64,000 bases of DNA from Schmidtea polychroa (Eukaryota): assembly GCA_044892525.1 (NCBI GenBank), contig CM097885.1:20152001-20216000 (forward strand). Direction: 5' to 3'. The notes beneath the pieces were generated by a model that searched no databases, was not told the origin of the DNA, and saw only the letters and a list, made by a program, of their open reading frames with translations. Positions 1 through 63,998 of the stretch are shown here, piece by piece (position 1 is the first letter of the stretch; each line of letters opens with the position of its first letter). The position numbers were made by a program, and so were the translations under genes.

Positions 1-241
1 GGATTTAATGCCTTACATAATTAACTTAATTAAAGATTTAGTTTAATAAATTTTAATAATCAACTAAAAATTTATTGAAATAATTTAATAATCAGCTAAA
101 AATTTATTGAAATAATATTTAAATTGTTGATCGAGCAAATAACTTGGGATGATGGTTATATAAGCTCGAACATTTAATTGTGAATATTATTTTGTTTTGT
201 GAATAAATTATTTTAAAAAAACAGCTTTTTATTATAAAAAT

Positions 242-620
242 TTATTTCATTGACTTTAACCAAGCCAAACGATGTTGTCCACATGTTTTTGTTATAGGAT
301 TTTGGTAACGTATTCGATTGCATTCAATTGGCATTAACATTGATTGTAGTTTATTGATTAATATAGGTGGATAATAGAATCCCATTGGATCAAATGCATA
401 TATTTTGTTTGGTTTCACGTATACTGCAAGCCAATGTTCACCATTCAGATTAGCAGATTGAGTATTTACAATTATTGCTTTGTTGACATCTAAATAAGGT
501 ATTTTGTCTAATGGGAAAACACCTAGAAATTCTTTTCCTAGTAATTTTCTTCCGATAATATGTATCTGAATAGAACTAAATTAATAATAATTAAATAATT
601 TAAATTAATTCTTACTTCAT
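242..620 (-). CDS. Adenain-like cysteine protease (Polinton PRO), 112 aa, exons 620-616 and 575-242
   Basis: Manual translation: MNSIQIH...FLGVFPLD...IVNTQ..NGEHWLAV...AFDPMG...YQNP..KTCGQH, with the H/D/Q/C catalytic order. It is missing from the ORF track because the ATG is separated by a 40-nt GTAAG...TTTAG intron. Confidence 0.88.
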
Positions 621-654
621 ATTTGATTAATTGATTTTCTATATTTGGTTTATA

Positions 655-1878
655 TTATACCAAAACAGTACGAGTAGATGTAATTTGAATTTCTTTTTCA
701 AAAACTCCATATACAATTACAGAAACAGCTTCAGTAAGTGAAGATGCGAATTTAATATCTAATCGCAAATTTCCACTTTGTGGTAACTGACTTTGATGAA
801 GATCAAAATCTGGTGCCAATACGAATGTAAAGAATGGATACTTGCTCTTAAAATCAGACATGGTGATACCACAATTCATATTTTTATTTAGATAACCCAT
901 ATTTCTAATAATTGATTGCATATAACTTGTACTATAATCATCATTCTCAAAATCTTGACTGTATTTTTCGCGATAATCACTTCCTTTACTTAAAGTTATG
1001 GACTTGACATTAAAGTGATCAAATATAGAAAATGATTCTGAAAACGATCCACTAAATCTTTTACTAGATTGAAATGCAACAAGAATAAAATTAGGTAGTC
1101 GTCTATCTCCAAATATTTGTTCTTTATAAAAAGAGGAAGAACCAATAGGTAATGAGAAATCAACAACTTCTTTGCTTCTTAAAGGATAAATTGCATTTTT
1201 TGTAGACAGACCAATTTGATGTCCTGCCAAAACCGATGGTTCAACACGAACTCTTCTAACCATTAATTTTGCGTCTAATAATAAAATTTTCGGTTCAATT
1301 TTCGCTCAAGTTAAACTAAGTGTTGGATTTGATCTTGTTAATTTAATTTGAACACTAACACCTGGTAGTAAATATTTAGGTTGATCAAAGAAATCAAATT
1401 GAAGTGGGGAACATAAAGAAAAGGATTTTAATTTTTCAATCCATGTTTTTCTCGTAAGATCTTTGTTAGTATACTCCATTCCACCTAAAGATGTTCGTTT
1501 AGTATCTCCGTCATAATTTATAAGTGTTTCAATTAATGCTTTGTGGGCAAATCTATCATTTGATCCTTCAACTTTGATTGAATTAAAAATTAATTCAACA
1601 TCTTTTAAAAGGGTTTGGAAGAAGAAATTATTTGGAATTACTTCTGATTCGCCTAAATTCTCACCAAAATTATTAACAACTTTCAATTGAATATATAACA
1701 AAGTATCATTCAAATCTAAATATTCAGTTTGCGATCCGTTTATGTAAAATTGAATCGAAGAAGAACCAGCATCTGTAATTGAATTTCTTGGGTATATATC
1801 TTCAAATGCTCCATGTTCAATCACTGCTTGGGGAGAAGGTCTATCAAAAAGACATAATTCTGATTTAGCACTAATCAT
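655..1878 (-). pseudogene. Major capsid protein (Polinton PY/hexon-like), ~407 codons, with one in-frame TGA at 1306-1308
   Basis: The N-terminus SELCLFDRPSPQAVIEHG and C-terminus GNLRLDIKFASSL..VIVYG are typical of Polinton MCP. The two ORFs share a frame: ...LSLT*AKIEPKFLLLDAKLMVRRV... Confidence 0.88.
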
Positions 1879-2273
1879 TTTTCAAAGATGGTACCATATC
1901 CTTTCATTCTTTTGTTTATATGTTTCTTCATAATTTTTCGGCGTTTAAGTATTCCACCTTTTTGTTCTTTATCATTTTTAAATACATCGGATACTTTATT
2001 AATTACTTCAGGTAAATGTTGCATCACTGCTGGTAATGATTCTTTAATTTCAGAAATTGCATTTGATTTTAAAGCAGGCAAGATATTTGCATTGTTATTT
2101 ATTACGTCATTAGCTGTTTTCATACCAAAATTTCCTATTCGTCTAAGAATTGGGAGTGCAAATCTACCTATTGTCTTCAACCAACCGGTTCCATATTGTT
2201 TACCAACAAAATATGGTAAATCACCACCCGATTGGTTACTACTATAAAAATGTATTATGTCAGGATTACTCAT
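1875..2273 (-). CDS. Small Gly-rich/amphipathic virion core protein (adintovirus pX/pVI-like) upstream of MCP
   Basis: Y..NQSGG..YFVGKQYGTGWLKTIGRFALPIL motif, a QKGG site and a basic C-terminus; lies between penton and MCP. Confidence 0.7.
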   Translation of the reverse strand: MSNPDIIHFYSSNQSGGDLPYFVGKQYGTGWLKTIGRFALPILRRIGNFGMKTANDVINNNANILPALKSNAISEIKESLPAVMQHLPEVINKVSDVFKNDKEQKGGILKRRKIMKKHINKRMKGYGTIFEK

Positions 2274-3282
2274 TTATTTTACGAAAATGTAATGTCAAGT
2301 ATGTTTTATCTTCTTTTCCAAATATATATTTTCCACTATCATCTCGTATATTGATTTCTATATTGTTTATATATGAAGACGATACAGGTAAGTACATTGG
2401 ATTCTTTTCAATTATTTGTACTAAATCATCTTTTTTATGTTTTTCCACCCAAATACATTTCAAAAGAGGGACCAATGTATCACCAACAATAATTGGTTCG
2501 ATAATATTTGTATAGATCATCAATTGTTGATTGCGTTGTAATACTTCAGGTTCTTTAAAACCAATAATAAGTTTGTCAGTATATGCTTCTTCTAATAATC
2601 CTAAACTATTGGCTAAAAATTTACTAAATTGAACTTTACTGACATCATCATCCATTACAATTTTAACGATTTTTCCTTTTTGAATATCAACAGATTTAAA
2701 TGGACGAGGATAAAAGGTTGATAGTTGATCATTTATTTGTGAAAGATCTGTTATGATATTTTCTTCGAATGTATCTGTAAACTCGACATCGTAATAATAT
2801 TGTATAGTTATTCGAATTGTATCAAACTTTATTTTTCGATTATTTGGAGGAATAGTGATTTTGTTCATTGTTTGCTTAAAAGTTATTTCTTTTTCTGAAA
2901 ATCCCAATTTTTGCGCTTCTTTAATACTATCGAATTCTACTTTAAAAGGAAAATATTTACAATTAATGTTCAATGTATTTCCATCAATATATATTAAATA
3001 AAATGGAGAGTCGTGACTGATTGTATATTCATTTTTTTCTTGGTTAAAGTAAAAGTATTCATAACTTGTATGTAATACACTTTTACTATATTTAACATTT
3101 GAATTGTTGTAAAAAGGAAAATAATTATACACAAAGGTAAAGTCCATGAGAGCTACTTCCCATTCACCATCCAAGTAAATAGGATTTTGAAATTCAACAT
3201 TAAATTTACCAGCTTCATTATTTGGATGAGTCTGAGGACAACTATTAGAAGGTAAATTCACATAAAAATCTTTTTTTATCAT
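2266..3282 (-). CDS. Minor capsid protein (penton), 338 aa
   Basis: FYVNLPSNS..THPNN..GKF...IYLDGEWEVAL N-terminus and IYTNIIEPIIVGD..VPLL..YLPV..INNIEINIRDDSG..LTLHF C-terminus. Confidence 0.88.
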   Translation of the reverse strand: MIKKDFYVNLPSNSCPQTHPNNEAGKFNVEFQNPIYLDGEWEVALMDFTFVYNYFPFYNNSNVKYSKSVLHTSYEYFYFNQEKNEYTISHDSPFYLIYIDGNTLNINCKYFPFKVEFDSIKEAQKLGFSEKEITFKQTMNKITIPPNNRKIKFDTIRITIQYYYDVEFTDTFEENIITDLSQINDQLSTFYPRPFKSVDIQKGKIVKIVMDDDVSKVQFSKFLANSLGLLEEAYTDKLIIGFKEPEVLQRNQQLMIYTNIIEPIIVGDTLVPLLKCIWVEKHKKDDLVQIIEKNPMYLPVSSSYINNIEINIRDDSGKYIFGKEDKTYLTLHFRKINE

Positions 3283-3405
3283 TTATTTTACGAAAATGTA
3301 ATGTCAAGTGTGTTTTTGTATCTCTACTAAATTTTATTAATTTTCCACTATCATCTCGTATATTGATTTCAATGTTGTTTATAGAAGAATTAGAAATTGG
3401 TACAA
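3245..3405 (-). pseudogene. C-terminal relic of a second penton paralog
   Basis: FVPISNSSINNIEINIRDDSGKLIKFSRDTKTHLTLHFRKIN aligns to the last ~40 aa of the intact penton. Confidence 0.8.
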
Positions 3406-4119
3406 AACATTTATCCAAGTTTTATTACCTTGATATACAAAATATTTTTTCAAACGTTCTCTTAAAGTTTGATTAAATCGTTCTACATGAGCAGCTTTGA
3501 ACTGAGAAAATACTGAGTAATGGTTTATTCCTTTGATAACCTCTTTAACTTTGCTGTTATAAAATTCTTTACCTAAATCATATATTTAAAAATTAATTAA
3601 TTAAATTTAATTACCTAAATCCGTTTGTAAATTAATAGGTTTAACATCTGCAAACATTTCTTTTATCGCATCAGCCATTTCATTTGCAGATTTAGTTTTT
3701 GTAGGAACAGCACGAGCATATCTATTAAAAACATCTATACAAGTCAGAATATATTTGTACCCCTTGTTAATTTTTGAAGAAGGTATCATTTCCATCAAAT
3801 CCATTTGCCATACATCATTGTTTCCAATTCTTTTGTATGGTCTTGTTGGAAAACGTTTCAACATTGGTTTATTTAAACTATATGCTAATTGATTAGATAA
3901 CCATTTCTGAGTTTCTTTCTTTGAATTATTCACTCGTTTTGTTAATTTTTCTACGCCACCAAAACCATCTGGATCTTTTGGGTTTGTCCATATTGTTTTT
4001 AACTTTTTCTCTATTGTTTTCACTTTTTTCACTTTTGTTTTCATATTTTTCACTTTTGTTTTTACTTTTGTTTTCATTTTTTCCACTTTTGTGTTGGTTT
4101 TGTGATACGTTTCCTTCAT
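3400..4119 (-). pseudogene. Retroviral-like (rve) integrase; exons 4119-3615 and 3572-~3400; 3'-truncated by deletion
   Basis: WQMDL, YILTCIDVFNRYA, and after removing the 42-nt intron QTDLGKEFYN...KAAHVERFNQTLRE (D,D,E intact). The reading ends at TWINVL, fused to the penton relic. Confidence 0.88.
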
Positions 4120-4188
4120 TATTACAACAAGTTGTCAAAATATTAAAATCTACAATATTTTTATTTGGTAATGAACTCTTGATACCTA

Positions 4189-4512
4189 TTAAGAACTTAA
4201 TGATGAGATTTCACTAATTGCAGATAAGACTATAGGAATTAGTCCACCCAAGAACCCTCCTTTTTTATATATTATCTTTCTCATTAGACGACGATTTTTT
4301 GTATCAACTAGAGATAAAAGTGATCTTTTATGTCTTTGCAATATTAATCTTTTAGCTTTAGTTATATTCACATTACCACGGACAACATTTATAATAACTT
4401 CAAGTAAATCATCAATAACAAATGATGGAAAAGACTGTAAAAATGATATTCGTTCCGAATTTGGTGCCTTTATTAAAGCATTAAAATATGGTAAACTCCG
4501 TTCAAATTTCAT
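4189..4512 (-). CDS. Conserved small Polinton/adintovirus protein with a C-terminal GGFL amphipathic tail (~107 aa from ATG 4512)
   Basis: N(V)VRGNV...LQRHKRSLLSL...KGGFLGGLIPIVLSAI pattern, lying between ATPase and integrase. Confidence 0.7.
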   Translation of the reverse strand: MKFERSLPYFNALIKAPNSERISFLQSFPSFVIDDLLEVIINVVRGNVNITKAKRLILQRHKRSLLSLVDTKNRRLMRKIIYKKGGFLGGLIPIVLSAISEISSLSS

Positions 4513-4541
4513 TATTATTATTAATTTACGCGACGGATTGT

Positions 4542-4682
4542 TTATAATTTGATCCACTTCTTGATTTGTTTCTTAGTTTTTGTACTTTTTGTACTTTTTG
4601 TTTTCTTTGTACGTTTTGTTTTCTTGGTAATTTTCTTCGAAACACTTGGAAGATTTTTAACAACTACTTTTTTAAATGACAT
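4542..4682 (-). CDS. 46-aa Lys/Thr-rich basic micro-ORF (possible DNA-condensing peptide or internally deleted gene)
   Basis: Manual translation MSFKKVVVKNLPSVSKKITKKTKRTKKTKSTKSTKTKKQIKKWIKL*; it fills the gap between flanking genes. Confidence 0.4.
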   Translation of the reverse strand: MSFKKVVVKNLPSVSKKITKKTKRTKKTKSTKSTKTKKQIKKWIKL

Positions 4683-4701
4683 GATTAATTTTATTTAGTT
4701 T

Positions 4702-5325
4702 TTAGTTTTGTTTATAAATCGTAACACCGTTTATATTAAAAATATCAGTTCTAATACGCATATCATCTGGACATTGTTGTGTAAAATCAAAAAATAAATA
4801 TCCATGAGGAATTTTTGTCGCATCTTGGAATGAATCAATCAAAAATTTTCTATTATTTGGATAAGCTTGTCTTGCAAGAAAATCTATTATTGTTTGATCT
4901 CTAGGATTTTTGAAAATAATTAAATATTGGACATTTAAATTACGTGTTCTATGACTTCCACCTTGATGAAAAAGATTTTGTGTAATGAAAATAACTGTAA
5001 CTCCACAATGTCTACTGATTTTTGTAAATAAATTATTAAAATCTTTTTCTTTATTTGCTTCCTGGTACAGATCATCGATAATAATAACATCACCTTGGCG
5101 TAATCTAGATGACCAATTTTTATCAAATCCTTTAATTATTGTCATTTTTAATTTACAGAAACTGTTTTGAGTCAATTCATGTTCTTCATCTGCACCTCGA
5201 TGCCAATATATTTTATTAAATTTAGATTTAAACATGTTTGATTGTAATAAATTACATACAAATAAAGTTTTCCCGCTTCCACTAGGTCCTACAATTTGAT
5301 ATACTGCGTCATTTCTTAATTCCAT
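4702..5325 (-). CDS. FtsK/A32-like DNA packaging ATPase
   Basis: Walker A GPSGSGKT, Walker B IIIDD, SRH and ITQNLF motifs, PHGYLFFD. Confidence 0.93.
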   Translation of the reverse strand: MELRNDAVYQIVGPSGSGKTLFVCNLLQSNMFKSKFNKIYWHRGADEEHELTQNSFCKLKMTIIKGFDKNWSSRLRQGDVIIIDDLYQEANKEKDFNNLFTKISRHCGVTVIFITQNLFHQGGSHRTRNLNVQYLIIFKNPRDQTIIDFLARQAYPNNRKFLIDSFQDATKIPHGYLFFDFTQQCPDDMRIRTDIFNINGVTIYKQN

Positions 5326-5375
5326 TTTTTAATTAAATTATTTTATTTAATTTGTTTATAATTACAATAAGTAGA

Positions 5376-5852
5376 ATGATCAGCAACATTAATTATAGAG
5401 GAAGATGTGTAGTAAATGGAATGAAGTTCCCATCAGGAAAACCTCAACATGTTGTGGACAGAAGTGGAAAATATCCAATTTTATTCTTCAAGAGCGGGAA
5501 ATGTAGGATAATGGGATGTAAGAAACCATTACAGGAAGGTGATCTCAAATATCAGATTCAAGATTTACAAATCCAATCAATTACATTAACGCTAGATATG
5601 GGTACATGCATTGATTTAAATGCATTGTCAAGGAAAACCGATAGTTACTACGAGCCTGAAATATTTCCAGCTTTACGTATTCTCAAGTATAACCCCCTAT
5701 GTGTAAATGTTTTTTCAAGTGGGAAAGTTGTTATATTAGGGATTAAAACATTTGATTATTTTAATCAAATTCAAGAAATTCAGAAATTCATTAAATCATT
5801 AACTATAAATATCACAACAAATGAAGAAATATTGGAATATTTATTAAGTTAA
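5376..5852 (+). CDS. TATA-binding protein (TBP)-like protein, intronless, element-borne
   Basis: Two TBP repeats: ILFFKSGKCRIMG and LQIQSI..LD....IDLNAL..SYYEPEIFPAL....P..VNVFSSGKVVILG. Confidence 0.85.
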   Translation: MISNINYRGRCVVNGMKFPSGKPQHVVDRSGKYPILFFKSGKCRIMGCKKPLQEGDLKYQIQDLQIQSITLTLDMGTCIDLNALSRKTDSYYEPEIFPALRILKYNPLCVNVFSSGKVVILGIKTFDYFNQIQEIQKFIKSLTINITTNEEILEYLLS

Positions 5853-5915
5853 TTAAATTAATTTAATTAATTGTGTTTAAATTAACTGAATATCTACAAT
5901 AACAAAAATTCAAAA

Positions 5916-6263
5916 ATGGATGACGATAAGCAAGCTTACATATTCCAGACTATATTAACAAAGATGGAAGAATTGTTCCCGAATATAAAGAACAGACTTT
6001 CGTATTGTGCTCCGGAATTATTAGCTTAAAGAATCAAGCAATTAACGGGGATCAATATAGAAGAACTTATACGACGACATTACGAATCTGTACAAGAATC
6101 AAGATTTAAATGCATAGACGATTGTGAAGTATGTATGGATTCGATGAAATTACCATGTCCATTTAGATGTAGATGCTGCCAAGAATATAAGATGAAAGAA
6201 GTTGTTCATATTTTACTAGCAGAATTAAGAAGAGCTTATTACAAGCAAATATTGGATGAATAA
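5916..6263 (+). pseudogene. Cys-rich ~115-codon ORF with an in-frame TAA at 6027
   Basis: Manual translation MDDDKQAY...ELLA*RIKQ...CIDDCEVCMDSMKLPCPFRCRCCQEY...ILDE*. Confidence 0.6.
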
Positions 6264-6365
6264 ATTTTATATCTTTACATTTGTTATTTGGTAAATTTTT
6301 ATGTGTCTAGTTCATTTTTATGTGTTTTGTTGTGTCTAGTTCATTTTTTATGTATTTGGTCGATA

Positions 6366-6505
<140 letters not shown>

Positions 6506-6689
6506 CATAAAAATTTCCATCTAAAATTTGTCTTTGAAAAATATTTCATAAAAATTTCCATTAAAAATTACCATTGAAAAATAATTCATTAAAATTTCTA
6601 TTAAAAATTACTTAAAAATTATTTCATAAAAATTTTCATTAAAAAATTTCAATTCTCAAACACCTTCAACTTTTTGTAATTAAATTTTA

Positions 6690-7880
6690 AAATCTTACTT
6701 TAATTTACTTTAATTTACTTATTTAAAATTTTTTACCATTGATTACTTAATTTAAAAATTATTACTTTAATTTACTTATTTAAAATTTTTTACCATTGAT
6801 TACTTAATTTTAAAATTTGGACCATTATTTACTTAATTTAATTTTTAGAATCATAATTTACTTTAATTTAATTTTTAGAACCTAAATTTACTGTAATTTA
6901 AAAATTTGAGCCATAATTTACTGTAATTTAATTTTTTAGAACCATTATTTACTTTAATTTAAAATTTTTGACCATAATTTACTGTAATTTAATTTTTTAG
7001 AACCATTATTTACTGTAATTGAAAAATTTGGACCATAATTTACTGTAATTCAAAATTTTTGACCATAATTTACTGTAATTTAATTTTTTAGGACCATTAT
7101 TTACTTTAATTTAATTTTTAGAACCATAATTTACTGTAATTCAAAAATTTTGACCATAATTTACTTTAATTGAAAAATTTACCACGTTTTTTAGTGTAGA
7201 CCACCTTTTTCTCAGGACCAAGGAGACCCACCTTAATTTAATTCGAAAAATGCATGCTTTTTTTAGTGATAGTCGGATTTTTGTATTGAAAATATCCTGA
7301 GACCTTAAATTACCATGCTTTTTTATTGAAGACCGCCTATTTGTATTGAAAATATCATGAGACCTTAAATTACCATGCTTTTTTAGTGTAGACCACCTTT
7401 TTGTATTGAAAATATCCTGAGACCTTAAATTACCACTCTTTTTTTAGTGTAGACCACCTTTTTGTAATGAAAAAAATTTTTTGTATTGAAAATCCCGGGA
7501 CCATCGAGACCCCCTCGCTATAGTGACAAAATTCCATGATTTTTTATTGAGACCGCCTTTTTTGTATTGAAAAAAATTTTTTGTATTGAAAATCCCAGGA
7601 CCATCGAGACCCCCTCACTATAGTGTGAATAATCCATGCTTTTTTATTGAAGACCGCCTTTTTCTATTGAAAAATTTTTTTTTGTATTGAAATTCTCAGG
7701 ACCATCGAGACCCACCTCACTATAGTGTGAATAATCCATGCTTTTTTATTGAAGACCAGCTTTTTGTATTGAAAAATTTTTTTTGTATTGAAAATCCCAG
7801 GACCATCATTTTTGTATTGAAAAAAATTTTTTGTATTGAAAATCCCAGGACCATCGAGACCCCTTCACTATAGCGTGAAA
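6690..7880. repeat. Polinton subterminal tandem repeat arrays (~30-bp ACCATAATTTACTGTAATT units, then ~60- and ~110-bp GTATTGAAAA...GAGACC units)
   Basis: Repeated units read directly; adjacent to the element terminus. Confidence 0.85.
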
Positions 7881-10369
7881 AATTGCGTAATAAAAAAGTT
7901 GCCGCAAAAAAAAGTTGCCGCAGACCCCCCCCCCCGGGGGGGTAATTGCGGCAGCGGGCCACTATCTACCTACTTTCTTTTATATTATTTTTCGTCCAAT
8001 CAGGACACGATTTGTTTGTAATTTTATTATTTATTATTATTTATATGTTTTTTATTATAATATACTGGATTTTAACGACCTTACTTATTTTTTATTATTA
8101 TTTTATTATTTTCTTATTTTTTATTGTTTTTCTCTTATTTTCCTATGGATTTATTACCATTTTGTTGTAATATAATTTTTTTTGTTTTAATTATTCTACG
8201 CATTTATTTAGGAATGGTTTTATTTTTATTTTATTTCATTAATTTCTCGTTTATTTTTCTTAAATTTTTGCTATTTTATTTTCCTTTTATTGTTATGCTT
8301 ATTGGGTAATTTCCTTTTGTCCTATTTTTCATCTTAAAAGTTTTATTATTTTATTAGTTATTCCTATCTCTTTTATTGTTATTTGATTTGTTTATTCCTA
8401 TATTTCTATGTAGTTTTCTGTAAAATTTATTTTTATCTATTCTATTCCTTTGTGTGGTCCCTTTTCTCATCCTTGACTCGATTTTCAACACTTTCAAAAC
8501 TTGGCCCAACACATCAAAGTATTTAAAATAAATTAGTTTTTACTGATAAAATCTCATTGAGGTTTTCGTTATATACATAAAATAATACAAAGATTCTCCT
8601 TTGGAACTAAATTCAATTCAAAACATTCATTCAGAACTTCGGCAATTTCTTCATAATATTTGTCAGTATATTATAAATTCGCCGACTTTGGAATCGTTTG
8701 GTTGGTTTGTCACACTAATCTTATAGCCATTATTGTTTATAACTTCCAAATTAGATTCAAATCCCAAAACCTGTGAACTATTTGTTGATTCATCATGATT
8801 TTTTCGAGTTAGTATTTAGATTATCATTTGTATTATTCTGTAAGTCAGTTGTCTTTACAAAATCGGATAACTTTTGATATAACATGTTTTGCATATTGAA
8901 AGATTTATATATTGAATTACTTGATGAATTCACTTTAAAATTCATATTTACATAACTCTAACCAATTTGCCATTTTGGAAAATTACATAATATGCAATAG
9001 CATTAGGAAAATCAATATTCACAACCATATAAGATTTATATAGATTTCGATAAGACCGTTTAACGGCTCACTACTGTTTATATATACAAAATTTTGATGC
9101 CCTTCCACGCATAGTTCTGAGAATTTAGACTGGCAGCGCACACATTATCGAGTATTGCTTGACTTGCTAATTTTCTTTTAAATTGAGTTGAATTTTTTAA
9201 AATTATTTTATATTCAGTACAAGCGCCCATGATTTGTCACTCCTATCGCGCATTCTATTGATTATTTTAAACAATCAATATATTTATTAATTTAATTTTT
9301 GGTTAATATTTTATTAATTTAATTTGGTCGAAGAAAGATAAGTAAGGAGAATCTCAGAAAATCCGGCGATTAGTGATCAGAAATAGTAATCTAGCAATTC
9401 AAAAAAGGTGTAAGACTCGTACCAGAAAATGGGATTGCCCCTTGGGTTTTCTACCTTAACAAGCCAAAATTGTTTTAAGCGAAAGGTGCAAATAGTTACA
9501 AATTGTAATTTGATTGAAATTAAATAAAATTATTCTGTGTTGGGTTTCAATTTATTTGGTTGAATAAGAACACGAGGAGTCAGAGAGAGAACCGACTTTC
9601 AAAATAAAAACAGGGTTGTTCACAGAAATTTCGAGGATTAATTTACCACTTTTGTTGTCATTTGTGATTCAATTCTATTTGCATGAATAAAAATTGGAGT
9701 TTCTATGTAGTCTTAGCCTTTACCTTCTCCAACAGTTACATTGTAAAAATAGGCCATGTTTAAGGTGCTTCTTGCTTCTTTTAAGATTTTTTAATTGTAT
9801 AATGATTTCGATCAATTGGTGTTTTGTGGTCGATAATAGTATATTACTCTCGGGATTTCATGGAAATTACTTAGTTTTACTTTACCTAAATCCCGGGATT
9901 TTCTTTGTGATAATATTTATTCACATGTTGGCAAGAATCCAAGTTAAATTTACTACTTTTGCACAAAATTCTGCTGCAAAAGAAAATAATTGGGATAATT
10001 TCAAGTGACCCACTTTAGTTCCGAAAATAAAGTATAAGATATACAAACATTTTTTTCTTTTTCCCAAAACATTTTTGTCGCAAAGTTATGAACGTACCAA
10101 AATAACATATACCAGTATAACATATAAAAATATCAATTAAAGCCCACCCCCACCTGACCTGATATAGAATCGGCCGATAGTATGTAGAATGCAGCAACAT
10201 GTCCGAATAAATTGTACCATTCCTGTAAACGCGCATAATCATTTTCTCATGATATCAACATGTTGGGCATCACTTCCTACGAGGTTGTCATCATTAAAAA
10301 AATTGGCTTTGCCATTTTGTCCACATTCAGGTCCACTTATAAATTGAGCAAATATTTTCACAAATGAAA

Positions 10370-10811
10370 TTTATTTTAAGCAAAAACAGGAGCAGGCTAA
10401 CTAATGAAAATTCAGATGTTTGTGTTCGACTTAAAACGACTAACTATAAACCAGACTTGACTAAATTGAAGTCACAAGTTCAACATCATAATTAATATCC
10501 TTAAATATATTGTATGCAATTGATATCTTCGGTAAAAATGAATTTAGGCCCACGTAGCAGTAAATCATAACGTAATACAGACGTTTCATTTGATTCTGAT
10601 ATAAATGAAGATTCTTTTTAATTAATATTGTCGAGAAAGTTTATAATAAAGTTTATTCAACTATGTTTGTAATTATTTTCTTAATAAAATATATCTTATT
10701 ATTTACTAAGATGCTGTTTTAATACGAAAATATCTCTGACCCAAACGTTTTCTTTAATACTCGCATTTTGGTTAATTTTGACCCGCGACCAAAAAAGGTT
10801 GCCGACCCCTG
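10370..10811 (+). mobile_element. hAT (Buster/Charlie-type) right-end remnant
   Basis: Transposase tail RLKTTNYKPDLTKL..Q.HH* and terminal GGTTGCCGACCCCTG. Confidence 0.5.
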
Positions 10812-11218
10812 GCGTAGATAAACAACAGAAAATAAACAAATGTGACTTAATTGCGATAAGAAAAAGTAGGAATGGAAATGGAAACTTTTCCCCCACAAAA
10901 TATCATTAACCGCATAAAATTTGAACAAAAATGGACACAGTGATGGAACCTAAATCTTATGTTAAAAATAATTTAAATTAATTTGAAAATTTTGTGCACG
11001 AGGAAACTTTTTCTATTATAATTTTGACTTAAATTCATTTTGAAACAAAATTGATATTTTTATTGATTTCAATTCTTTTTCTTAATTCTAATTTATTTAT
11101 CTAATTATTAATAAACTATTTTATTCAATTTTAAATTAATTTATTATCAACATGTTGTATCATAAATTGGTTTCTTGTGCTATTTTTTGTGTTATTTCTG
11201 TCTTATTTGATGTATTAA

Positions 11219-11441
11219 TACGTTCACGCAGGTGCGTCCCACCGGATGGTACGCACTGCCCGATAAGGCGGTCTAGTGCGGGCCATCGGTGTGATCGGTA
11301 TATTCGGTATATTCATCAAAAACATTTATTTTTAATTACAATTATAATTAATAACGTATTATAAATATAATCTTTGTTCAATAACATAAACTGTGCCGCC
11401 AGATGATGTGCTGCATGAAAATCCACGTCTGAGTGAACGTA
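11219..11441. mobile_element. TTAA-flanked MITE (piggyBac-like)
   Basis: TIRs TACGTTCACGCAG / CTGAGTGAACGTA with TTAA on both sides. Confidence 0.7.
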
Positions 11442-12668: not shown

Positions 12669-48127
<35,459 letters not shown>

Positions 48128-50637
48128 TTTTATTAATAAAAAAGTATAGTCCTCATTTTTGTTGAATTAAATAATTAAATTGATTTCTAAATTATGATCC
48201 ATTTAAATACTTTCTAATATTTGGTTTTGCATAATCAATCTAAATTATTTCAACCTGAGCCTGGAAGAGGGGTTGAGGAAATGCAGGAAAATCTCACTCG
48301 GCACTCCTACACAATCAATTCAAAATTAATATTTACTTAGTAAATTAGTTCTAATTCGTCGAGGATAGCTCAGAATCAAGGAGATTCAACAATCTAATTC
48401 TAAATAGCGGTTTTGTACACTATAATCGTCGAGCATTCGAGCGGGCTCGCCGACCACCGTTATAAGGTTGGTCCCTATGTTGGTCCCTAGTCCACACTCT
48501 CTACTTGATTTCTCCTGAATTTTTCTCAGTTCCAACTTTGCTTCCATTACCTGGACTGAAGTGGTATCTAGTAGTTTAAATAAAGTTTCCTCGTCCACGC
48601 AGCTCACAGGACGTTTGTGTAACGACTCCTTGGTGTTGTATAGTAAGACCTTGGAACTACGGACAAACTAAAACTTTTGACGCAATTACCGATATTACTT
48701 AATATAAATTAACTTTTGCCTGTAAACTTTCCGTAGTTGCTTCACTTACCTGTAGGCGAGCGTGATGGAGAAACGCGGGTGCTTCTCACAAGTATACAAC
48801 AGAGGGTAGGGTGGGCCGCCATATATATATAGCTTTCGTCAACTGTGAACAAAAGAAGTTGCAGTGTTAACTGCGCAAATTAACTGCTCCACTTTTCGTA
48901 AGTAAAATATGTGTATGATTTTACTATCTTACAGGTTATGTGGTTGGCTGTGGACCGAAAAACATATCATAGGTGCTCATGATGATTTTATAACAACGAA
49001 GATTATTCCATTAAAAAATTAGACATCCAAAGCCTGACAAAAATAACTTCTTGCCTAAATATTTTCAAGGAATTCGCACAGTTTTAATAAATTTTTACAC
49101 AAAGATTTCATTAATTTCTGATAAAAATCGCTTCATTATATACCTTTTATATGTGCGACTTTGTGCTTGTACTGATGCAGTAAAATTAATTCAAATTCTT
49201 TTAATTTAATTTATTTCTGGATTCAATTTTTATCTATTTTAATGGCGATTTTTCGGTATTTAATATTTATTTCATTTTCTAATTTTTATATTTTATTTGA
49301 TTCTAATTAAATTCGGACCCATGATGGATATGGCCATTTTCTAGAATATTCTGTGTCATTTTGAATAGTTTTATTATATAATTTTTATTTCTTTTAATTG
49401 TTACGTTATTATTTTTTGATAAATTTGTTTTTCTGAATTTTTATAATTTATTTAGTTTTTATTAGTTTCCTCGCCGTGTTGGATTTCGCCATTTTCAAAG
49501 AATATTCTAGTGTTTTTTATCGTTTTAATTATAATTTTTATTCATAATTTATTCCTTTTATCATTTCTAATACAATTTTTTTTAGTTTCTATATTTTTTT
49601 TCTTTTATCGTCATGGATTCGAATCAGTCTATATCCTGTTAATTATTTGTGATATATATTTATATTTCATTCGTGAACTACTCTTGTTATTCCATTTACT
49701 ATACTTTTTTGTTCCATCATTTTGATGTTATGTAGTGTCTTTTATCGTGTTTACTTGATGTAAATTTTTGTGTTTGATTTTCATTTGGCCTAGGGCTCTA
49801 TCTGTGCTAGTCTTGATCAAGACTATGTGTTCTTTTTGAGCTGTAATGTATTGTAATTATTTATTTTTCTTGGTTTTGTTAACCGTATGTTATAAATGTA
49901 AATTACAATTCTTCACGTCGTACGTGGCGAAGGTTTTTATTTTATGTTTGTAAAAAAACAAACTATATAGTGATAATTTACCATAGTAAATTATCACTAT
50001 AGGAAAAAATTGAATTTAAAAAAAAATCGATAACTACAAATTAAAAAAATTATCAAAACAAGAAACAGTAAATTGGGAAATTTCAAGATCCAACAGTTAT
50101 AATTCGGAAGCTCTCCCAACGACTACTCAAAGGATTAGATCAAATACTCGTATAATCTCGAACCATACACTTACTTTTTCATATCCCATTATTATTCGAA
50201 CTTAAAAAGCTTACTCAAAGATTAATCACTGAAGAAAAGCTATATTGTCAGAAGTAACCTTATATTGGTTTTTAGTTAATAAAAATTTTAAAGTGTTATA
50301 ATAATTGTTGTATATTAATTTGATTTTCTTTTTTATTGTATTTTTCGCGTCAAAACAAAACACAGCCTGCACCCCGATTGTCCCGCCACATTTTTTTTAT
50401 CGGTGACTCTTTCGGGCTCATCAATTTTCCTGATTGCATTAAATAACGATAAAAATAACATTATTACTTAACATGAGCATTCTAAGCACAAATCATATTT
50501 ATGCTAGGTTAAAATCAGTTTTTAGCCAACAGTAGTTTAACAACACGAAGATACTATATGACACTTTTTGTAGAAATAATATCAGTAAAACAAGAGAATA
50601 TCTTTTTTTTTCAAAACAGATAGTTCCTTTTGGAAAT

Positions 50638-54888: not shown

Positions 54889-55350
54889 TTATAGTGTCGT
54901 GGATGATTTCTTCGGAGTAGGCTCTGACACCGCAGAATGACGTGTTAATTGGGCTTGGCTGTCTTGTCTTATTCTCGCCCGCGCCGCTTTACCCGGTCGG
55001 ATCTTCTTCCTCGGGATTTTCGGTGATGCGCACTCCTTCGGGTTGTGGAGCAGCTCACTCATGGGCCGGACTTTGGAGATGACATCTCGGTCGAGACCCT
55101 GTTGGAGTACTTTGATCTCCAGCTCCTTCACTCTCAGGCGGAGGGCCCGCAACTCAACCTGATCTTGGGCACTCTGGTGTTGCAGTTGAGTGATCAGTTT
55201 CATCCGCTTTTTCATCTCTGCTGGCGGGAACCAGGTACTCTCGAAATTCCGACAATGGGCCTTGATTCGTGCTAACCTGGCCCGGTATTCTTCTACTTGT
55301 TATTGCGCCCGCTCTCTATCTGCTCGCATTTCTTCCAGGAGTTTTAGCAC
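54889..55350 (-). pseudogene. Orphan coiled-coil protein B2 (paralog of 56675-57145), one in-frame stop
   Basis: KLLEEMRADRERAQ*Q..ESTWFPPAEMKK..Q.AQDQVELRALRL. Confidence 0.65.
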
Positions 55351-55907
55351 TAAATTAAGACAACATTAGTGATTTTCACCTCAGCATTGAGTGACGCGCA
55401 TTATTAATAATAAATGAATGTAAACTCCTCGTCGCAGCCATCCTCTCTGTACACCTAATCCTAGTTCTACTAATCTTACCAAAACCTTATAGGGCTGGTA
55501 ATAATAGTCAACGTTAAGGAAAATTGTAGTCAATTATAATAGTAGTCAACGTTAAAGAAAATTGTCAAAAATAAAACAAATACAAACAATTGAATTAGTA
55601 TTGACGACTAAAGACATAAACAAACGATTACAAGAATATGAACTACCAAGATAAAAAGAGTAATACTTCTCCTTGAATCAAGGACGTCTATCACTTTACA
55701 TAAATCGCCCTGTACATTGATCACAAAGCCATTTCATGCTATTTAGTGTTCGATTTCGAGTCATAGTCTTTGATCACAACGCGGATGTTAGGCGTGTCGC
55801 ACCACGCTGGCTTTCGGCCCGACAATCCCATTGGCTGAGCTGGCGGTTCTTCGTGGGCGTCCACGTTTTCTTGGCCGGTCCGGTCCTCGCGGAGGACTTC
55901 TTGGATA

Positions 55908-56290
55908 TTACAGGCCACGGCGAAGGGCTGCGGTCCGCTTAGGATGACATTGAGCTCGAGCGTAACCGTCAATGTCCTCGTGCTCACCGGCTAGGGTTGC
56001 TGTTTCGAGTCTGTGCAATCGGTCCACCGCTTCCTTCGCATTGTCGAATGCGTCGCCCAAAGCCAATGATGTATAATTGATATACGGCTCCACCTTCGGG
56101 ATCACTGGGACTACATTCTGGTAGGTCCAATCGTGGATTTTATACCATATCCACCGGGACCTTAGGCGAGCGATTTCTGCGTCCTTCCGTAATCGTACGG
56201 CTTCGTCCGTCTCCTTGTGAGTTGGTTCGAGGCTCAAATCGGAGGATGAAGGACCGGCCTGCACATTCCATGCTCTTGGTGGGTTACTGG
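55908..56290 (-). CDS. Orphan protein A2 (paralog of 57355-57720); no in-frame ATG near the conserved part
   Basis: ARLRSRWIWYKIHDW versus TRLRTRYIWHRIHDW. Confidence 0.55.
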
Positions 56291-56485
56291 TGGTTGAATG
56301 ATTGAGTGCTGTTACCAGCGTAACCCAAAATACAACATTGTTTTTCCGCTTGGTACCCGTTGAGTGATCAACGTTGGTACTGTACCAAGGGTTGAGTACT
56401 CGCAAAAAGTGAGCGCATCAAAGCACTATAGTTGTCGAGTACTCCGTGGGTTCACGGACTACCGATAGAAGGTGTGTGTCCGATT
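56277..56485 (-). ncRNA. Conserved structured RNA element, copy S2
   Basis: Same stems as S1, with compensatory changes. Confidence 0.7.
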
Positions 56486-56674
56486 TCTCAGGTCCCTTTA
56501 TCAAAATTGTTTTCCCAACCTTATGCACAAACTCTCATTTCCCAGGCAATCATAAACTGTACTAGTCCTTATTTTATCACTACAAAACGTGCAGTATTTT
56601 AACAAGGAACATATTATTTGAAGACTACCACAATACATAAAAATACTACAAAACACCTAAAACCGAATATAAGT

Positions 56675-57145
56675 TCAAACAGGCTTATTGGTAGGACTGG
56701 CCAATTCCGTCGCAGCTGCTAGTGACGAATTTGCTTGTCGCTCGTATTCGGCCAGTCTAGCTTTCTTCAATTTTTCCCGAATATTTCGGCCTAACCGCTT
56801 TCTTTTGGGTTTCTCTTTCGCGGCCGGGGGGTATATTGCTGCTAGTTCCACGGTCAACGGCCGGATTTGGCTTATGGCGGCTCCGTGAACTACTTGTTCA
56901 TTTCGCTCGGTTTCTAGCGCGCGGAGCTGGAGCTTCAGTGCCCGGATCTCCATCTGATCCTGCGCGGCTTGAGTCTGCAGTTGAAGGACCTGCGCCACCT
57001 TCTTTTTCATATCCTCGGGACTAAACCAGGTGCTTTCTAGTTCCCGGCACCGTCCCTTGAGCTTGTCTACTCGTATGCGGAGCTCCTCGGACTGTTTTTG
57101 AGCTTCTGCCCTATCTCTTCGCAGATTTTCCAATAGTTTGAACAC
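56675..57145 (-). CDS. Orphan coiled-coil protein B1 with a basic NLS-like patch
   Basis: GC-rich 156-codon ORF with protein-level conservation to B2; begins right after a TAG acceptor. Confidence 0.7.
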   Translation of the reverse strand: MFKLLENLRRDRAEAQKQSEELRIRVDKLKGRCRELESTWFSPEDMKKKVAQVLQLQTQAAQDQMEIRALKLQLRALETERNEQVVHGAAISQIRPLTVELAAIYPPAAKEKPKRKRLGRNIREKLKKARLAEYERQANSSLAAATELASPTNKPV

Positions 57146-57354
57146 TAGATAAATTCAACGATTATATTCTTGCAGCGTACTATTCATTCAATTATAAAAT
57201 AAAATCAATATTATAAATAGACATGGTTTCGGGTGTTAAGCACGCAATACACAAGATGATTTATTAAAAGGACTGAAATAATTATCACTAAAATCAAAGT
57301 TTAATAAAGTCACAACTGGATGATAATTTGCAAAAACAAAATTTTGACGATGAG

Positions 57355-57720
57355 TCAGTTCAGTCGCTTGCGAGGCCTTCCCCTCTTCCGCGGGGTTGCC
57401 TCGGCCTCTTCTAGGTCCTCCACGGTTTTTCCCTCTTTTTCTGCTTGGATTTGCAGCTCGATCTTCTTGAGTCGCATCTGAGCTGCCTCTACCTCGATGG
57501 CCGCTCGGTCGCGGGCCTCTTGCAAAAAATCGTTTGTGGGCTCTGTTTTTACCCACGCCGGAGCGTCCGGCTCCGGCCCACTCCTGATTACTGGGCCAAA
57601 GTTGTCGAGGTCCAAACCCCGATTCCAATCATGGATACGGTGCCATATGTACCGTGTACGGAGTCTGGTAAGCAGCTGTCGGTCGGCTTCTTCGTGGCTA
57701 TCGCTGTCAGAGTAGGACAT
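57355..57720 (-). CDS. Orphan protein A1 with a C-terminal AT-hook
   Basis: ATG-started 121 aa, PRKRGRPRKR; acceptor TTTTGTAG 2 nt before the ATG. Confidence 0.7.
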   Translation of the reverse strand: MSYSDSDSHEEADRQLLTRLRTRYIWHRIHDWNRGLDLDNFGPVIRSGPEPDAPAWVKTEPTNDFLQEARDRAAIEVEAAQMRLKKIELQIQAEKEGKTVEDLEEAEATPRKRGRPRKRLN

Positions 57721-58239
57721 TTCTACAAAATAATAATCAAGCCCCTCTATACTGATTGAGATACGACGTCAACCACAAGATTTTGTTGACCCTTTTTCCC
57801 TTTAAAAAAAAAATATTTTATTTTAAGACTAACATCTATAAGCTTAGGAGTAGTGGAATAAGATTTCCTACTTTATCAAAACAAACACAAAAAAAAAAAG
57901 AATTTCGTCAAAATTCGTTTGTTTAAATTAATCATTTCCATTCAAAATTTTGTTTACCACCGAGTGGTAATCTTAATTACTATTTATAAATTTTAATTTA
58001 TATGTTAATAAAATGTGAATTTTTTTTTTAGATCGTCATTTTTAGGCCACTAAATTCGGGCACGCTGGGGCGACAGGTACTAGCAACGAACTAAGCTCTT
58101 CGTCTGCTTACCTTTCCTTCGGTTGTGCTCGTTATGAGTGGTTTGCTCTGCATACAAGTAATTTATTTAATTTGCTAATTTCTAAATTTCCAGGTGATCG
58201 ATATCGGATTGGGATATCGATTTTTTGTAGTTAACTGTA

Positions 58240-60921: not shown

Positions 60922-61908
60922 CTAATAGAATTCTGTTGTTCGGGATCTCGTCTCGATGACGGCTCTGGTTTCGATGTTTGGGGAAGATTTGAAGTATCTT
61001 GGTTGGTTCGTTGTTTGGATTAGCTGTTCTTCCATTGGGATATGAATATTCTTTGATTGTTCTTTTAGTTTGAGGGTTTTGTTTCTTGCTTTACTGGAAT
61101 TGGGTTTGAGTGCAATCAGGCTCAGTACGGTAATGTTTATCATTAGGCTTGCCGCTAATAGGATCAATATTGTGAGAGATTCAGACTCTCTCGGTTCTAT
61201 TACTTTGGGTTTGTTCATAATTTCTTTTAATTGGGTTGTATCCGCCGTTTCTGATTTTTCGGGCTTATTGAATTTGTTTTCTTCTGAGGTGACAACTTTC
61301 TTTATTGCCTCAAGGGTTTTAATCATCTTCTCGGAGTTCGTTGGGTTTTTGTTTATGGTAGTTAGGATTTCCCTTGTCATTTCTTTCAAGGTTTTCGTTA
61401 CCTCATTTTTAATGCTGGGTTCCTCTTTGATGATGGAAGTTATTTTTCCTTTCATTTCCTCCAAAGATTTTACTACTGTTTCGCAATTGCTTGATCGTCC
61501 ATAGGCGGTTGCTGTTACCTGTTGTTTTATTTCCTCTAATATTATTACCATCATTCTCATTGCGGCTGGATCTGTTTGGGATTCTCTCTTTGATTTCTGA
61601 CTTTGACATTGTTTGGCTAATGTTGCTATCTGGGTTCTGATAACTTTCATTTCTTGTTCTAGCATTGTTTTTATTGTCTGAGCCATTTGCACTTCCGTCG
61701 AACTTTCAGTTGTTTGTGGACATTGCGAACATTGTAACTTGATTTGTTCGCATTCCTCATTGGGTTTTTCGCAGATCGATTTAAAGCTACTACATGTACT
61801 ATCTTCTCTGCGATATGGGTATTCTTTCTGGCATCTGATCATTGATTCTTCTGCTTGCAGGATTCTTGGCATTGTCATTATAATCATCATCACGATTAGG
61901 CTTCTCAT
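60922..61908 (-). CDS. Orphan type I membrane protein (signal peptide, Cys-rich head, helical repeats, TM, tail)
   Basis: Intact 328-aa intronless ORF; hydrophobic N-terminus and LTILILLAASLMINITVLSLIAL. Confidence 0.75.
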   Translation of the reverse strand: MRSLIVMMIIMTMPRILQAEESMIRCQKEYPYRREDSTCSSFKSICEKPNEECEQIKLQCSQCPQTTESSTEVQMAQTIKTMLEQEMKVIRTQIATLAKQCQSQKSKRESQTDPAAMRMMVIILEEIKQQVTATAYGRSSNCETVVKSLEEMKGKITSIIKEEPSIKNEVTKTLKEMTREILTTINKNPTNSEKMIKTLEAIKKVVTSEENKFNKPEKSETADTTQLKEIMNKPKVIEPRESESLTILILLAASLMINITVLSLIALKPNSSKARNKTLKLKEQSKNIHIPMEEQLIQTTNQPRYFKSSPNIETRAVIETRSRTTEFY

Positions 61909-61984
61909 CTTTACATATACATATACGTTAATAATAATTACTTGGCTTTATTTACAATTTATTTACACGGTTATTTTGTCTCAT

Positions 61985-62770
61985 TTATTGGGAGCCACCG
62001 ACCTCATCCCTTAATTTTACGGGAGGTTCGGGTGCTCGTCTTTTGCTCAACTCGTTCATTCTTATTATTTCGAGTTGCGTTGCTATCAACTGTCTCTTTA
62101 ATTCTGGTATTTCTTGTAATTGCTTCTCTTTACTTTTCCATTTTCTCTGCTTGATGGTTATTGCCGTCTGCAATGCTTGCATGCTTCGTCGTTTTTGATT
62201 TAAGATTCTCCGGTAATTTTCTTTCAACTTCCATTGTTTTTCTGTTTCCTCTCTTTGTTCCTTGATCTCTTCCTTGAGTTTTACATTTCTCTTCTCGACT
62301 TTTTTACTTTCTCGCACTCTTGTTTTTGCATAAGCATATTGTGCTTCTAACTGCTCGATATAGACTTGGTCGATATTCACAATCTTTTTCAACTTCCTTG
62401 TTTCTGATTTCCAATAATCTTCGATTACTGCCTGAGCTCTCAACTCTACTATCTCTTGTCTCAGGTTTTTATTTTCTGTCTCTTTTCGTTTCGATTCCTT
62501 TATTTCCCTCAAAATTTCTTGCTTGACAGTGTTTATTAATCGTCTTGATTGAACAATATGCTGCCTCAATCTCGTAATCTCTACATTTTGATTTGCAATC
62601 TTTAATTTGAACAACTTCTTGCTGACTCTCCATTTATTGCTATAATATTTCATCGGTTCTTGTTTGATTGGTATCATATCCTGGTTTTGTTCAGGTTGGT
62701 CGTTTGACTTTCCTTCGTTACTCGTTGATTCTCTTTCTTTTAAATAATTCATATCTACAAAAATATACAT
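61985..62770 (-). CDS. Orphan basic coiled-coil protein
   Basis: Intact 261-aa K/E/R/Q-rich ORF. Confidence 0.7.
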   Translation of the reverse strand: MYIFVDMNYLKERESTSNEGKSNDQPEQNQDMIPIKQEPMKYYSNKWRVSKKLFKLKIANQNVEITRLRQHIVQSRRLINTVKQEILREIKESKRKETENKNLRQEIVELRAQAVIEDYWKSETRKLKKIVNIDQVYIEQLEAQYAYAKTRVRESKKVEKRNVKLKEEIKEQREETEKQWKLKENYRRILNQKRRSMQALQTAITIKQRKWKSKEKQLQEIPELKRQLIATQLEIIRMNELSKRRAPEPPVKLRDEVGGSQ

Positions 62771-62835
62771 ATCATATTTCCTTTTGTCTTCTTTTTATTC
62801 TGAATTTTTTGGTTTTGTAATTTTTATTTGGTTTT

Positions 62836-62837
<2 letters not shown>

Positions 62838-62901
<64 letters not shown>
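62838..62901 (-). repeat. 64-nt poly(A) tract (minus strand)
   Basis: Read directly. Confidence 0.95.
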
Positions 62902-62933
62902 CATTCTTATTTACAGGCAACATCTCCCTTCGA

Positions 62934-63998
62934 CTAAATCCATGTTGCGTTATTTTGTTCGTTATTTTCATCGAAGCCTTCATCTGTGGTGACTTCGGCA
63001 GGCTGTGGCACTTGCAACGGGAACGGGTAGAGTGGCATTAATAATATTGGTGGTTGTCTCCTTAACCGATCTATTTCCTCTCGTAGTTCCGTTGAGATGT
63101 TTATTTCCTCATCCAATAAAAACGTTAATCTACCTTCGTTTTCTATCCTTTCGTTTAATTCCTCTTCCAATCGTTGGGTTCTTTCGAGCGTTTTTAGTTT
63201 TTCAATTTCCGCTCTCAAATTTGCTTCATTTTCTTCGAAGCATCGTTTTATTATCTCGGTTTCCTGTTTGGTTTGTTGAATTGTCTTGTCGCACTCCTCT
63301 CTATATTTCGCATTAAGCTCAATCTGGTGCTTCCAATTCACATCCCTTTGGGTGTACATACCTTTATATCCGTTCATCTCTTGATTGGCTTCTTCCACTT
63401 CGGTTTGTAATTGTCGGATCTGTCGATCTTGGTCTGTCAATTGTTGTTCCCATCTCTTTTCCTGGAATTCATACCTTCTTATTTCTCGAGTCTGTTTCTT
63501 TATGATTCTCTGTCTACCGTCGCTGATCCGCGTCTTGATTCTATGTTCTCTACTCAATCGGCTGATCTCATCTTTTTGGTTTTCTATCGTTTCCCATATT
63601 TTAAATTCGTCTCTTTCCATCAGTTTTATTGGTAACTGTCTTAACTCCTCTTTGGTCTCTTTCCAATTCTTTTTCCATTTTCGGGCTTGATGCTTGAGAC
63701 ACTTTTCGGTTTCCTCAGTTTTTTGCTGTCGTTTTCTCCACTCTACTTCCTCTTCTTCTCGCTGTGCAGCTCTTGTTTCGTAAAATTCTTGGTCTGCTTT
63801 TCGTAATCGCAGTTGTTCCTTGCTACTGATTTTCCAATAGAGTACTTGAGTTTGACTTCCTAGGTATTTATACTTCCATTTCTGGGCTTGTATCTTTATT
63901 TGTGTGTTAATTCGCTCTAATACGTTATCTCTAACAATTGGTTCTCTATGCGGTGTTCTCCTCCCTTGCCCTCTGACTTCGTTTAGGGTCTTTTTGCA
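62934..63998 (-). CDS. Orphan coiled-coil protein, 5'-partial (frame open to the window edge, >350 aa)
   Basis: Manual translation upstream of 63620 has no stop (CKKTLNEVRG...QARKWKKNWKETKEELRQLPIKLMERD...). Confidence 0.75.
   Translation of the reverse strand, partial: CKKTLNEVRGQGRRTPHREPIVRDNVLERINTQIKIQAQKWKYKYLGSQTQVLYWKISSKEQLRLRKADQEFYETRAAQREEEEVEWRKRQQKTEETEKCLKHQARKWKKNWKETKEELRQLPIKLMERDEFKIWETIENQKDEISRLSREHRIKTRISDGRQRIIKKQTREIRRYEFQEKRWEQQLTDQDRQIRQLQTEVEEANQEMNGYKGMYTQRDVNWKHQIELNAKYREECDKTIQQTKQETEIIKRCFEENEANLRAEIEKLKTLERTQRLEEELNERIENEGRLTFLLDEEINISTELREEIDRLRRQPPILLMPLYPFPLQVPQPAEVTTDEGFDENNEQNNATWI

Follow-up and report, generated by a model that had tools for sequence, protein, structure and literature searches.

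The integrase gene of a Polinton/Maverick (adintovirus-like) element in the window, the 64,000-nucleotide stretch of Schmidtea polychroa DNA analyzed here, is interrupted by a short segment that, judging from sequence comparison, is very probably an ordinary U2-type spliceosomal intron in phase 1, gained at an AG|GT site and inherited within the lineage of the element. The original prediction of a gained spliceosomal intron in a viral gene is supported by a break shared among relatives, by their grouping in a single clade, by the pattern of selection on the protein and by a second intron candidate in the protease gene. In the proposed scenario, the gain would have taken place in a single Polinton/Maverick (adintovirus-like) lineage, at a proto-splice site of its integrase, and would predate the separation of the window family from a 79%-identical sister family; the intron may have arisen through staggered-break repair, a duplication resembling that of a target site or simple insertion at a favored site. 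Transcription of the element would take place in the host nucleus, and its mRNA would be processed by the spliceosome of the host. A transcript left unspliced would reach a stop two codons into the intron and yield a protein devoid of the catalytic Glu and the C-terminus, so that integration by the lineage would require host splicing.

The element and its integrase insert

Positions 242 to about 7974 constitute one arm of the element (Table 1), identified as Polinton/Maverick (adintovirus-like) by Pfam matches to rve, Pox_A32 and Peptidase_C5 and by a double-jelly-roll capsid, the latter via the capsid homolog of metagenome locus L005 (51% identical to the window protein; nearest cluster double-jelly-roll, score 0.98); the window capsid protein itself matched nothing in Pfam or among PDB sequences. 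The 338-aa ORF is one that we take to be penton-like, from synteny, and L001 presents two penton-like genes in tandem. A Lys/Thr-rich ORF of about 46 aa, identified by eye between the ATPase and the pX-like gene (4542-4682, minus strand), has a similar basic ORF of 50 aa at the same place in L005, and is possibly a DNA-binding core protein. A 21-nt Lys-rich repeat forms the N-terminus of the integrase (3983-4103); its length is not the same in all copies, among which several different joins were observed, and the relative P0242 differs in it. Locus L005 shows the same gene order as the window element and carries a pPolB gene (PF03175) beyond its protease (9122-11323, minus strand), with an N-terminal Endonuclease_7 match (E = 2e-05); pPolB is absent from the window, and the L005 order points to a location beyond window position 1. 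One probable element end lies at 7974 and the other falls outside the window. The terminal AGTAGG is comparable to the (AGT)2 and (AG)3 end motifs given in the available text of PMC8097293.

Table 1. Coordinates of the features discussed, in window positions.
Feature	Position	Strand	Remarks
Protease exon 2	242..575	-	adenain-like; Pfam Peptidase_C5, E = 4.8e-05
Phase-2 GTAAG..TTTAG intron candidate, 40 nt	576..615	-	protease codon 2; same position in L005, L010, L013, L015
Protease exon 1	616..620	-	start codon and two bases
Major capsid protein gene	655..1878	-	in-frame stop at 1306-1308
Conserved 132-aa ORF, function unassigned	1875..2273	-	
Second penton-like (minor capsid-like) ORF, 338 aa	2266..3282	-	no family match
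First penton-like gene, 3' end	3280..3402	-	fused to truncated integrase; remainder deleted
Integrase exon 2 remnant	3403..3572	-	catalytic Glu region; cut at 3403 by deletion
Downstream 11-bp repeat copy	3569..3579	-	last 7 nt of intron candidate and 4 nt of exon 2
Phase-1 GT..AG intron candidate	3573..3614	-	interrupts the Gly codon that follows the second catalytic Asp, in the catalytic core of the integrase
Upstream 11-bp repeat copy	3611..3621	-	7 nt of exon 1 and first 4 nt of intron candidate
Integrase exon 1	3615..4119	-	Lys-rich repeat leader, first two catalytic Asp
ORF with weak adenovirus pX-like C-terminal match	4189..4512	-	E = 8.3e-04, under curated cut-off
A32-type packaging ATPase	4702..5325	-	Pox_A32, E = 6e-07; 60-75% identity in related loci
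TBP-like gene	5376..5852	+	TBP, E = 5.2e-16; head to head with ATPase; homologs in L005, L023
Small Cys-rich ORF	5964..6263	+	in-frame stop at codon 22
Subterminal tandem repeats; probable end of the element	6500..7974		minus strand begins AGTAGG at 7974
Host Na+/Ca2+ exchanger gene	12669..48166	-	intron yardstick; introns inferred by homology

The integrase insert, 42 nt in length and 93% A+T, starts with GTAATT and finishes with ATTTAG. Read in frame, it amounts to 14 codons, three of which are TAA stops, in agreement with the in-frame stop that had been described in the catalytic motif. It lies in the region of the second catalytic Asp of the rve integrase domain (Pfam PF00665, E = 1.1e-08). 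Once the insert is excluded, the two exons are collinear and in frame with uninterrupted homologs, and the predicted restoration of QTDLG-KEFYN is confirmed by the residues flanking it, which are adjacent in all 120 full-length integrase homologs listed (the best 120 of 157 passing, from 358 candidates). These homologs are called open reading frames, a set biased against stop-bearing inserts. The DNA of the metagenome loci gives the same picture, with insert-free sequence in 31 of the 31 loci in which the site was recognized (36 fetched).

The ends of the insert resemble host splice signals, the introns of the host exchanger gene showing GTAA in 6 and TTTAG in 5 of 10 cases. Its length compares with 51-57 nt for the short introns of this gene (57, 53, 51 and 51 nt; n = 4) and with 37-47 nt for the protease intron candidates of the element. 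No branch point stands out in the insert, in which matches are of the TTAAT type only and lie at -24, -28 and -32, in a sequence of 93% A+T. Group I or group II intron identity was set aside on length alone.

The long introns of the exchanger gene are filled with transposons. In the exchanger tree, which comprises 11 rows of poor spread, the window protein is grouped with two trematode sequences (94/93) at an unstarred node and has a long branch, a placement that weakly suggests a flatworm host. Two elements that we take, from their motifs, to be Ty3/gypsy-like retrotransposons lie in its introns, one broken (18228-22508, minus strand) and one with a long open pol-like frame of 1138 aa (32845-37061, plus strand), together with what are presumably transposase-like fragments, piggyBac-like and another (27880-29240 and 37559-38164, both on the minus strand). 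GC-richer blocks at 54889-57768 and 60922-63998 (minus strand) hold long coiled-coil ORFs of up to 354 aa, two of them separated by a poly-T run (62838-62901); the three such ORFs tested gave no convincing Pfam match. In Schmidtea mediterranea, intron lengths peak at 45-85 bp according to the accessible portion of PMC13594981, and the 42-nt insert thus falls just below a peak that is that of another species.

The window copy is itself a decayed relic that merely preserves the putative intron. Its integrase lacks the 3' third owing to a deletion at 3402/3403, a feature absent from the original prediction, and its capsid gene carries a nonsense codon; the capsid break was considered as an intron and rejected, as it consists of a single in-frame stop without insertion. 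The proposed dependence of integrase expression on splicing may hold for the family, and does not apply to this copy, which is broken elsewhere. Beyond 3403, a different continuation is seen in contigs from sequencing runs X1 (4) and X8 (15), and the junction is spanned by none of the pieces listed. Another join, from 3275 to 3403 with 113 other letters between, is present in X8 and X10 contigs.

The element family is multi-copy and diverse, with matches in 284 X1 contigs and 836 X8 contigs. Part of the window is contained in 20 of the 24 runs listed, none of which is on record as RNA, and the detailed comparison with the window covered contigs of X1, X8, X10 and X14. Run X10 had been guessed to be RNA; the depths of two of its contigs track X1 at about 1:7.4, a fixed ratio which suggests that X10 may be DNA. 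A dip in depth in bin 3581-3620 was rejected as a sign that most copies lack the insert, since the insert is skipped as a repeat, with 5 joints and 12 loose ends discarded there (X14), and 3 of 40 positions were counted. Likewise, no weight was given to the 14 of 21 variants that are synonymous among host copies (among the integrase rows listed, with six variable-leader rows left out), because they are not assignable to intron-bearing copies.

Relatives sharing the break and the protease intron candidate

The insert is not confined to the window copy, contrary to the uniqueness that would have counted against the original prediction. A search for short integrase products yielded 27 matches from 35 candidates. 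Protein P0242 (Logan) is 98% identical to the window over the core, from which it differs at three positions and in its N-terminal repeat, and it ends in QTDLGN, exactly like the 5' ORF of the window and at the same stop; it could be an allele of the window locus. Proteins P0243 (JGI) and P0269 (Logan), cluster mates that come from different sources and from contigs of unequal size, share 94% identity with one another and 78-79% with the window. Both break at the same codon and end in QTDLGKIII, a tail that requires at least 67% A+T, fits a G|GTAAR donor and differs from the window insert from the fifth intron base onward. The insert position is therefore common to P0242, P0243 and P0269 as judged from the ends of the called proteins, these relatives being known as proteins alone. 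Out of 149 integrase proteins, 136 were uninterrupted by script (137 with P0268, added by eye), seven end or deviate at the site and five stop short. Among 29 short integrase records, the homology is lost no more than one residue from the site in seven (in five clusters), and the corresponding points of the remaining 22 are spread between -51 and +91.

A tree of integrase exon 1 was inferred from 74 of 150 integrase rows and 135 columns, comprising the best-ranked full-length proteins, a few distant ones and the short matches reaching the site, and was rooted at the midpoint. The window, P0242, P0243 and P0269 group in one clade (100/96) from which uninterrupted proteins are absent, itself part of a wider clade (98/95) of mostly uninterrupted proteins. 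The position of this clade inside uninterrupted relatives argues for gain rather than loss, insofar as the midpoint root is adequate. The break label needs two changes on this tree, and a single change was obtained in none of 200 bootstrap trees.

Between P0242 and P0243, 1 of 25 differences falls in conserved columns, defined as the 39 columns each kept in at least 90% of the 120 homologs, against 7.5 expected (p = 0.0006). This deficit indicates that purifying selection continued to act on the integrase once the two break-bearing families had separated, and an inherited stop in the catalytic core could be reconciled with such selection only by removal of the segment from the mRNA. The two exons are equally conserved, exon 2 showing 71-82% and exon 1 64-76% identity to the same 11 uninterrupted homologs.

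Further breaks were observed at the site. Protein P0270 breaks there with an A+T-rich tail and falls outside the four-row clade. The ENA proteins P0245 and P0270 share an identical integrase exon 1 and break at the same Gly with different tails. Protein P0245 was rejected as an intron carrier because its tail resembles the integrase C-terminus; it is likely a deletion product, which indicates that non-intron breaks also happen at this site. The end of P0261, from a distant lineage, reads QTDLGK and is consistent with a donor as well as with the end of a contig, and the breaks of P0246 and P0261 possibly represent a stop or a contig end. Viral contig scans returned no matches with the junction-flank pattern and no loci with integrase exon 1, P0243 or the protease alignment, and an exact look-up of eight window proteins found none of them in the protein collection.

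The protease ORF of the window has no in-frame start of its own; its start codon and two further bases lie upstream of a 40-nt segment. The position of this intron candidate is kept in four of the five loci that reach the gene (5 of 36 loci do), at 8479 in L005, 5598 in L010, 5262 in L013 and 5232 in L015, with respective lengths of 37, 39, 47 and 47 nt and three unrelated interiors; L013 and L015 are near-identical, and the four intron-bearing loci may share one sampling campaign. In the more distant L023, the protease starts directly, without an intron candidate. When 1.84 billion representatives were searched with a protease profile, the four best matches had no Met where the homologous start would lie, and the protease leaders of P0271, P0272, P0274 and P0292 are rich in F, I, L and Y, as intron read-through predicts; at least 25 of the 41 matches inspected (of 150 listed) do have their initial Met at this position. 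When positions 1-6300 were scanned on both strands, post hoc, for A+T-rich donor-acceptor segments of 35-60 nt, the integrase and protease candidates were the only ones retrieved. The protease intron candidate is better documented at the DNA level than that of the integrase, and its conserved position is evidence of the same kind for introns of this size being in use in the lineage.

The junction repeat and alternative explanations

The predicted 11-bp direct repeat, GATTTAGGTAA, is present at both junctions of the insert, and a third exact copy (9882-9892) lies outside the element, in surrounding sequence without integrase homology. The repeat is thus real, but its proposed meaning, a gain by duplication of an AG|GT site, fared less well. 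Junction repeats of at least 11 nt arise in 0.75% of shuffles (p = 0.0075) with GT..AG fixed only, and in 22% (p about 0.22) with the ends GTAA..TTTAG fixed. Nine of the 11 repeat bases coincide with the common splice signals of the host, leaving an excess of 2 nt over the splice consensus, and the repeat is hence weak evidence for a duplication origin. The exon side of the repeat is the usual A+T-rich coding for D-L-G-K; AGGT occurs at the site in 9 of 31 uninterrupted loci and the same 11-mer in five. The unrelated protease intron candidate of L005 ends in the same final eight letters without an exon repeat. The interior of the insert matches the flanking exons at 25 of 42 positions (p = 0.07, 0.29 and 0.54, according to the ends fixed; gapped p = 0.43), and no significant signal of tandem duplication was detected in it (p = 0.07-0.54), a result that an old, decayed duplicate could also produce. 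Junction repeats above 6 nt were found in none of the 10 host introns. That of the integrase insert is the longest among those compared, which leaves room for a repair origin. The site is a good proto-splice site, and duplication as the route of gain is an unproven and weakly indicated option.

Were the AG|GT within D-L-G-K a hotspot, the window family and the P0243 family, and perhaps also the lineages of P0270 and P0261, could each have acquired an intron of their own, the repeat marking a recent gain. We regard such parallel gains as quite improbable. They would account for tails that differ from the fifth intron base onward, for the two changes required on the tree and, should it reflect a donor, for the end of P0261, and the frequency of AGGT and of the full 11-mer in uninterrupted loci would provide suitable targets. 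New introns with junction repeats of 4-12 bp have been reported in Daphnia pulex (33 cases in the available text of PMC4202315), although the accessible portions of PMC4202315 and PMC3443670 that describe junction repeats in new introns also caution that old introns show them. A single gain is, however, the simpler explanation for the four-row clade, the protease intron candidates illustrate how interiors can diverge fully at a kept position, and the repeat is largely accounted for by splice signals.

Similarly low in probability is a disabling repair insertion, whereby a staggered double-strand break would have been filled with A+T-rich DNA, generating the 11-bp duplication and, as a by-product, the GT..AG ends of a segment that is never spliced, the break in the sister family being an independent accident. 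The low chance of the repeat when GT..AG alone is fixed speaks for such an event, as do the several other ways in which the window copy is dead, an insert shorter than the mapped short introns of the host and the presence in P0245 of another lesion at the same site. Yet independent lesions would be needed at one codon in sister families, each in two records, and the purifying selection between the families, the clade without an uninterrupted member and the matching protease intron candidate would be left unexplained. By far the least credible explanation is an introner that entered the already integrated element, of the kind found in dinoflagellate eupolintons, since the introners found in about 25% of classified viral elements (available text of PMC12166617) and the resemblance of the flanking repeat to a target-site duplication are countered by a 31-nt interior for which the rest of the 64-kb window offers no close copy (best match 25/31, in A+T-rich DNA) and that is unlike both the protease intron candidate and what the sister-family tail implies.

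Significance and comparison with known systems

If the lineage indeed harbors inherited introns in its integrase and protease genes, intron-blind pipelines would take functional elements for broken ones and underestimate their number, and the truncated database integrase proteins described here would be exactly such calls. Nuclear, host-spliced expression would also be implied, and the integrase would offer a small, datable intron gain in the active-site region of a viral enzyme. The multi-copy nature of the family would make gain, spread and possible regulation directly testable given host RNA data.

In the Drosophila P element, with its third intron, and in adenovirus, with its spliced leaders, a key enzyme needs host splicing, which is regulated and tissue-specific. 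The lineage described here would resemble this mobile element and this DNA virus in the dependence of a key enzyme on the splicing machinery of the host, and is unlike them in that nothing in it shows regulated splicing. An unlikely extension, drawn by analogy, is that the lineage might be a spliceosome-dependent nuclear DNA virus still gaining core-gene introns, with the AG|GT site next to the second catalytic Asp of the integrase hit repeatedly, and that the integrase intron might act as a host-controlled switch, its retention leaving a protein that is catalytically incomplete and its splicing (by tissue or small-RNA state) deciding between integration and replication only, much like the P-element third intron.

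As described in the available text of PMC8097293, PMC8502044 and bioRxiv 10.1101/2022.07.12.499685, animal Mavericks/Polintons share with the window element an rve integrase, an A32 ATPase, an adenain-like protease, a double-jelly-roll capsid and an AG-type end; unlike them, the integrase and protease of the window each present a position-conserved short intron candidate. The premise that Polinton genes are generally intronless stands for core genes as so described: no introns were observed in intact vertebrate elements (PMC8097293, accessible part), and the core genes of nematode Mavericks are intronless, with introns in the cargo genes wasp and krma (bioRxiv 10.1101/2022.07.12.499685, accessible part). 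The window element would resemble these nematode Mavericks in carrying intron-containing genes and differ from them in that the introns would reside in its own core genes rather than in captured host-type cargo. Endogenous viruses and virophages are treated or found as intron-free in the available portions of PMC10120064 and PMC8547959, the former stating explicitly, for protists, the intron-free assumption under which large surveys call endogenous DNA virus genes with prokaryotic gene finders, and group I introns are reported from cryptophyte PLVs (PMC12220804, available text). In the Polinton/Maverick/adintovirus literature, no paper was found on inherited spliceosomal introns in core genes, and the accessible text of PMC8502044, PMC10748475, PMC11296320, PMC6431247 and two 2026 preprints holds nothing on core-gene introns; supplements, Repbase and the 2006-2007 founding papers could hold annotations.

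The A+T-rich insert, its short junction-spanning repeat and the AG|GT site recall the new introns of Daphnia pulex and the proto-splice and tandem-duplication models, as presented in the available parts of PMC4202315 and PMC3443670. In contrast with the Daphnia gains, the candidate lies in a viral core gene and is apparently old (0.34 substitutions per site between carriers), and, unlike introns of the tandem-duplication model, its interior holds no recognizable exon duplicate. The premise of intronless Polinton genes does not extend to dinoflagellate eupolinton-like elements, in which introners have been published (PMC12166617); according to the accessible text, these are multi-copy, derived from transposons, mostly post-integration and depleted in coding regions. 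Spliceosomal-type introns in Polinton-like elements are a trait that the window element would share with them, whereas its intron candidates are unrelated in their interiors, stay at a fixed position and show signs of having been inherited under selection.
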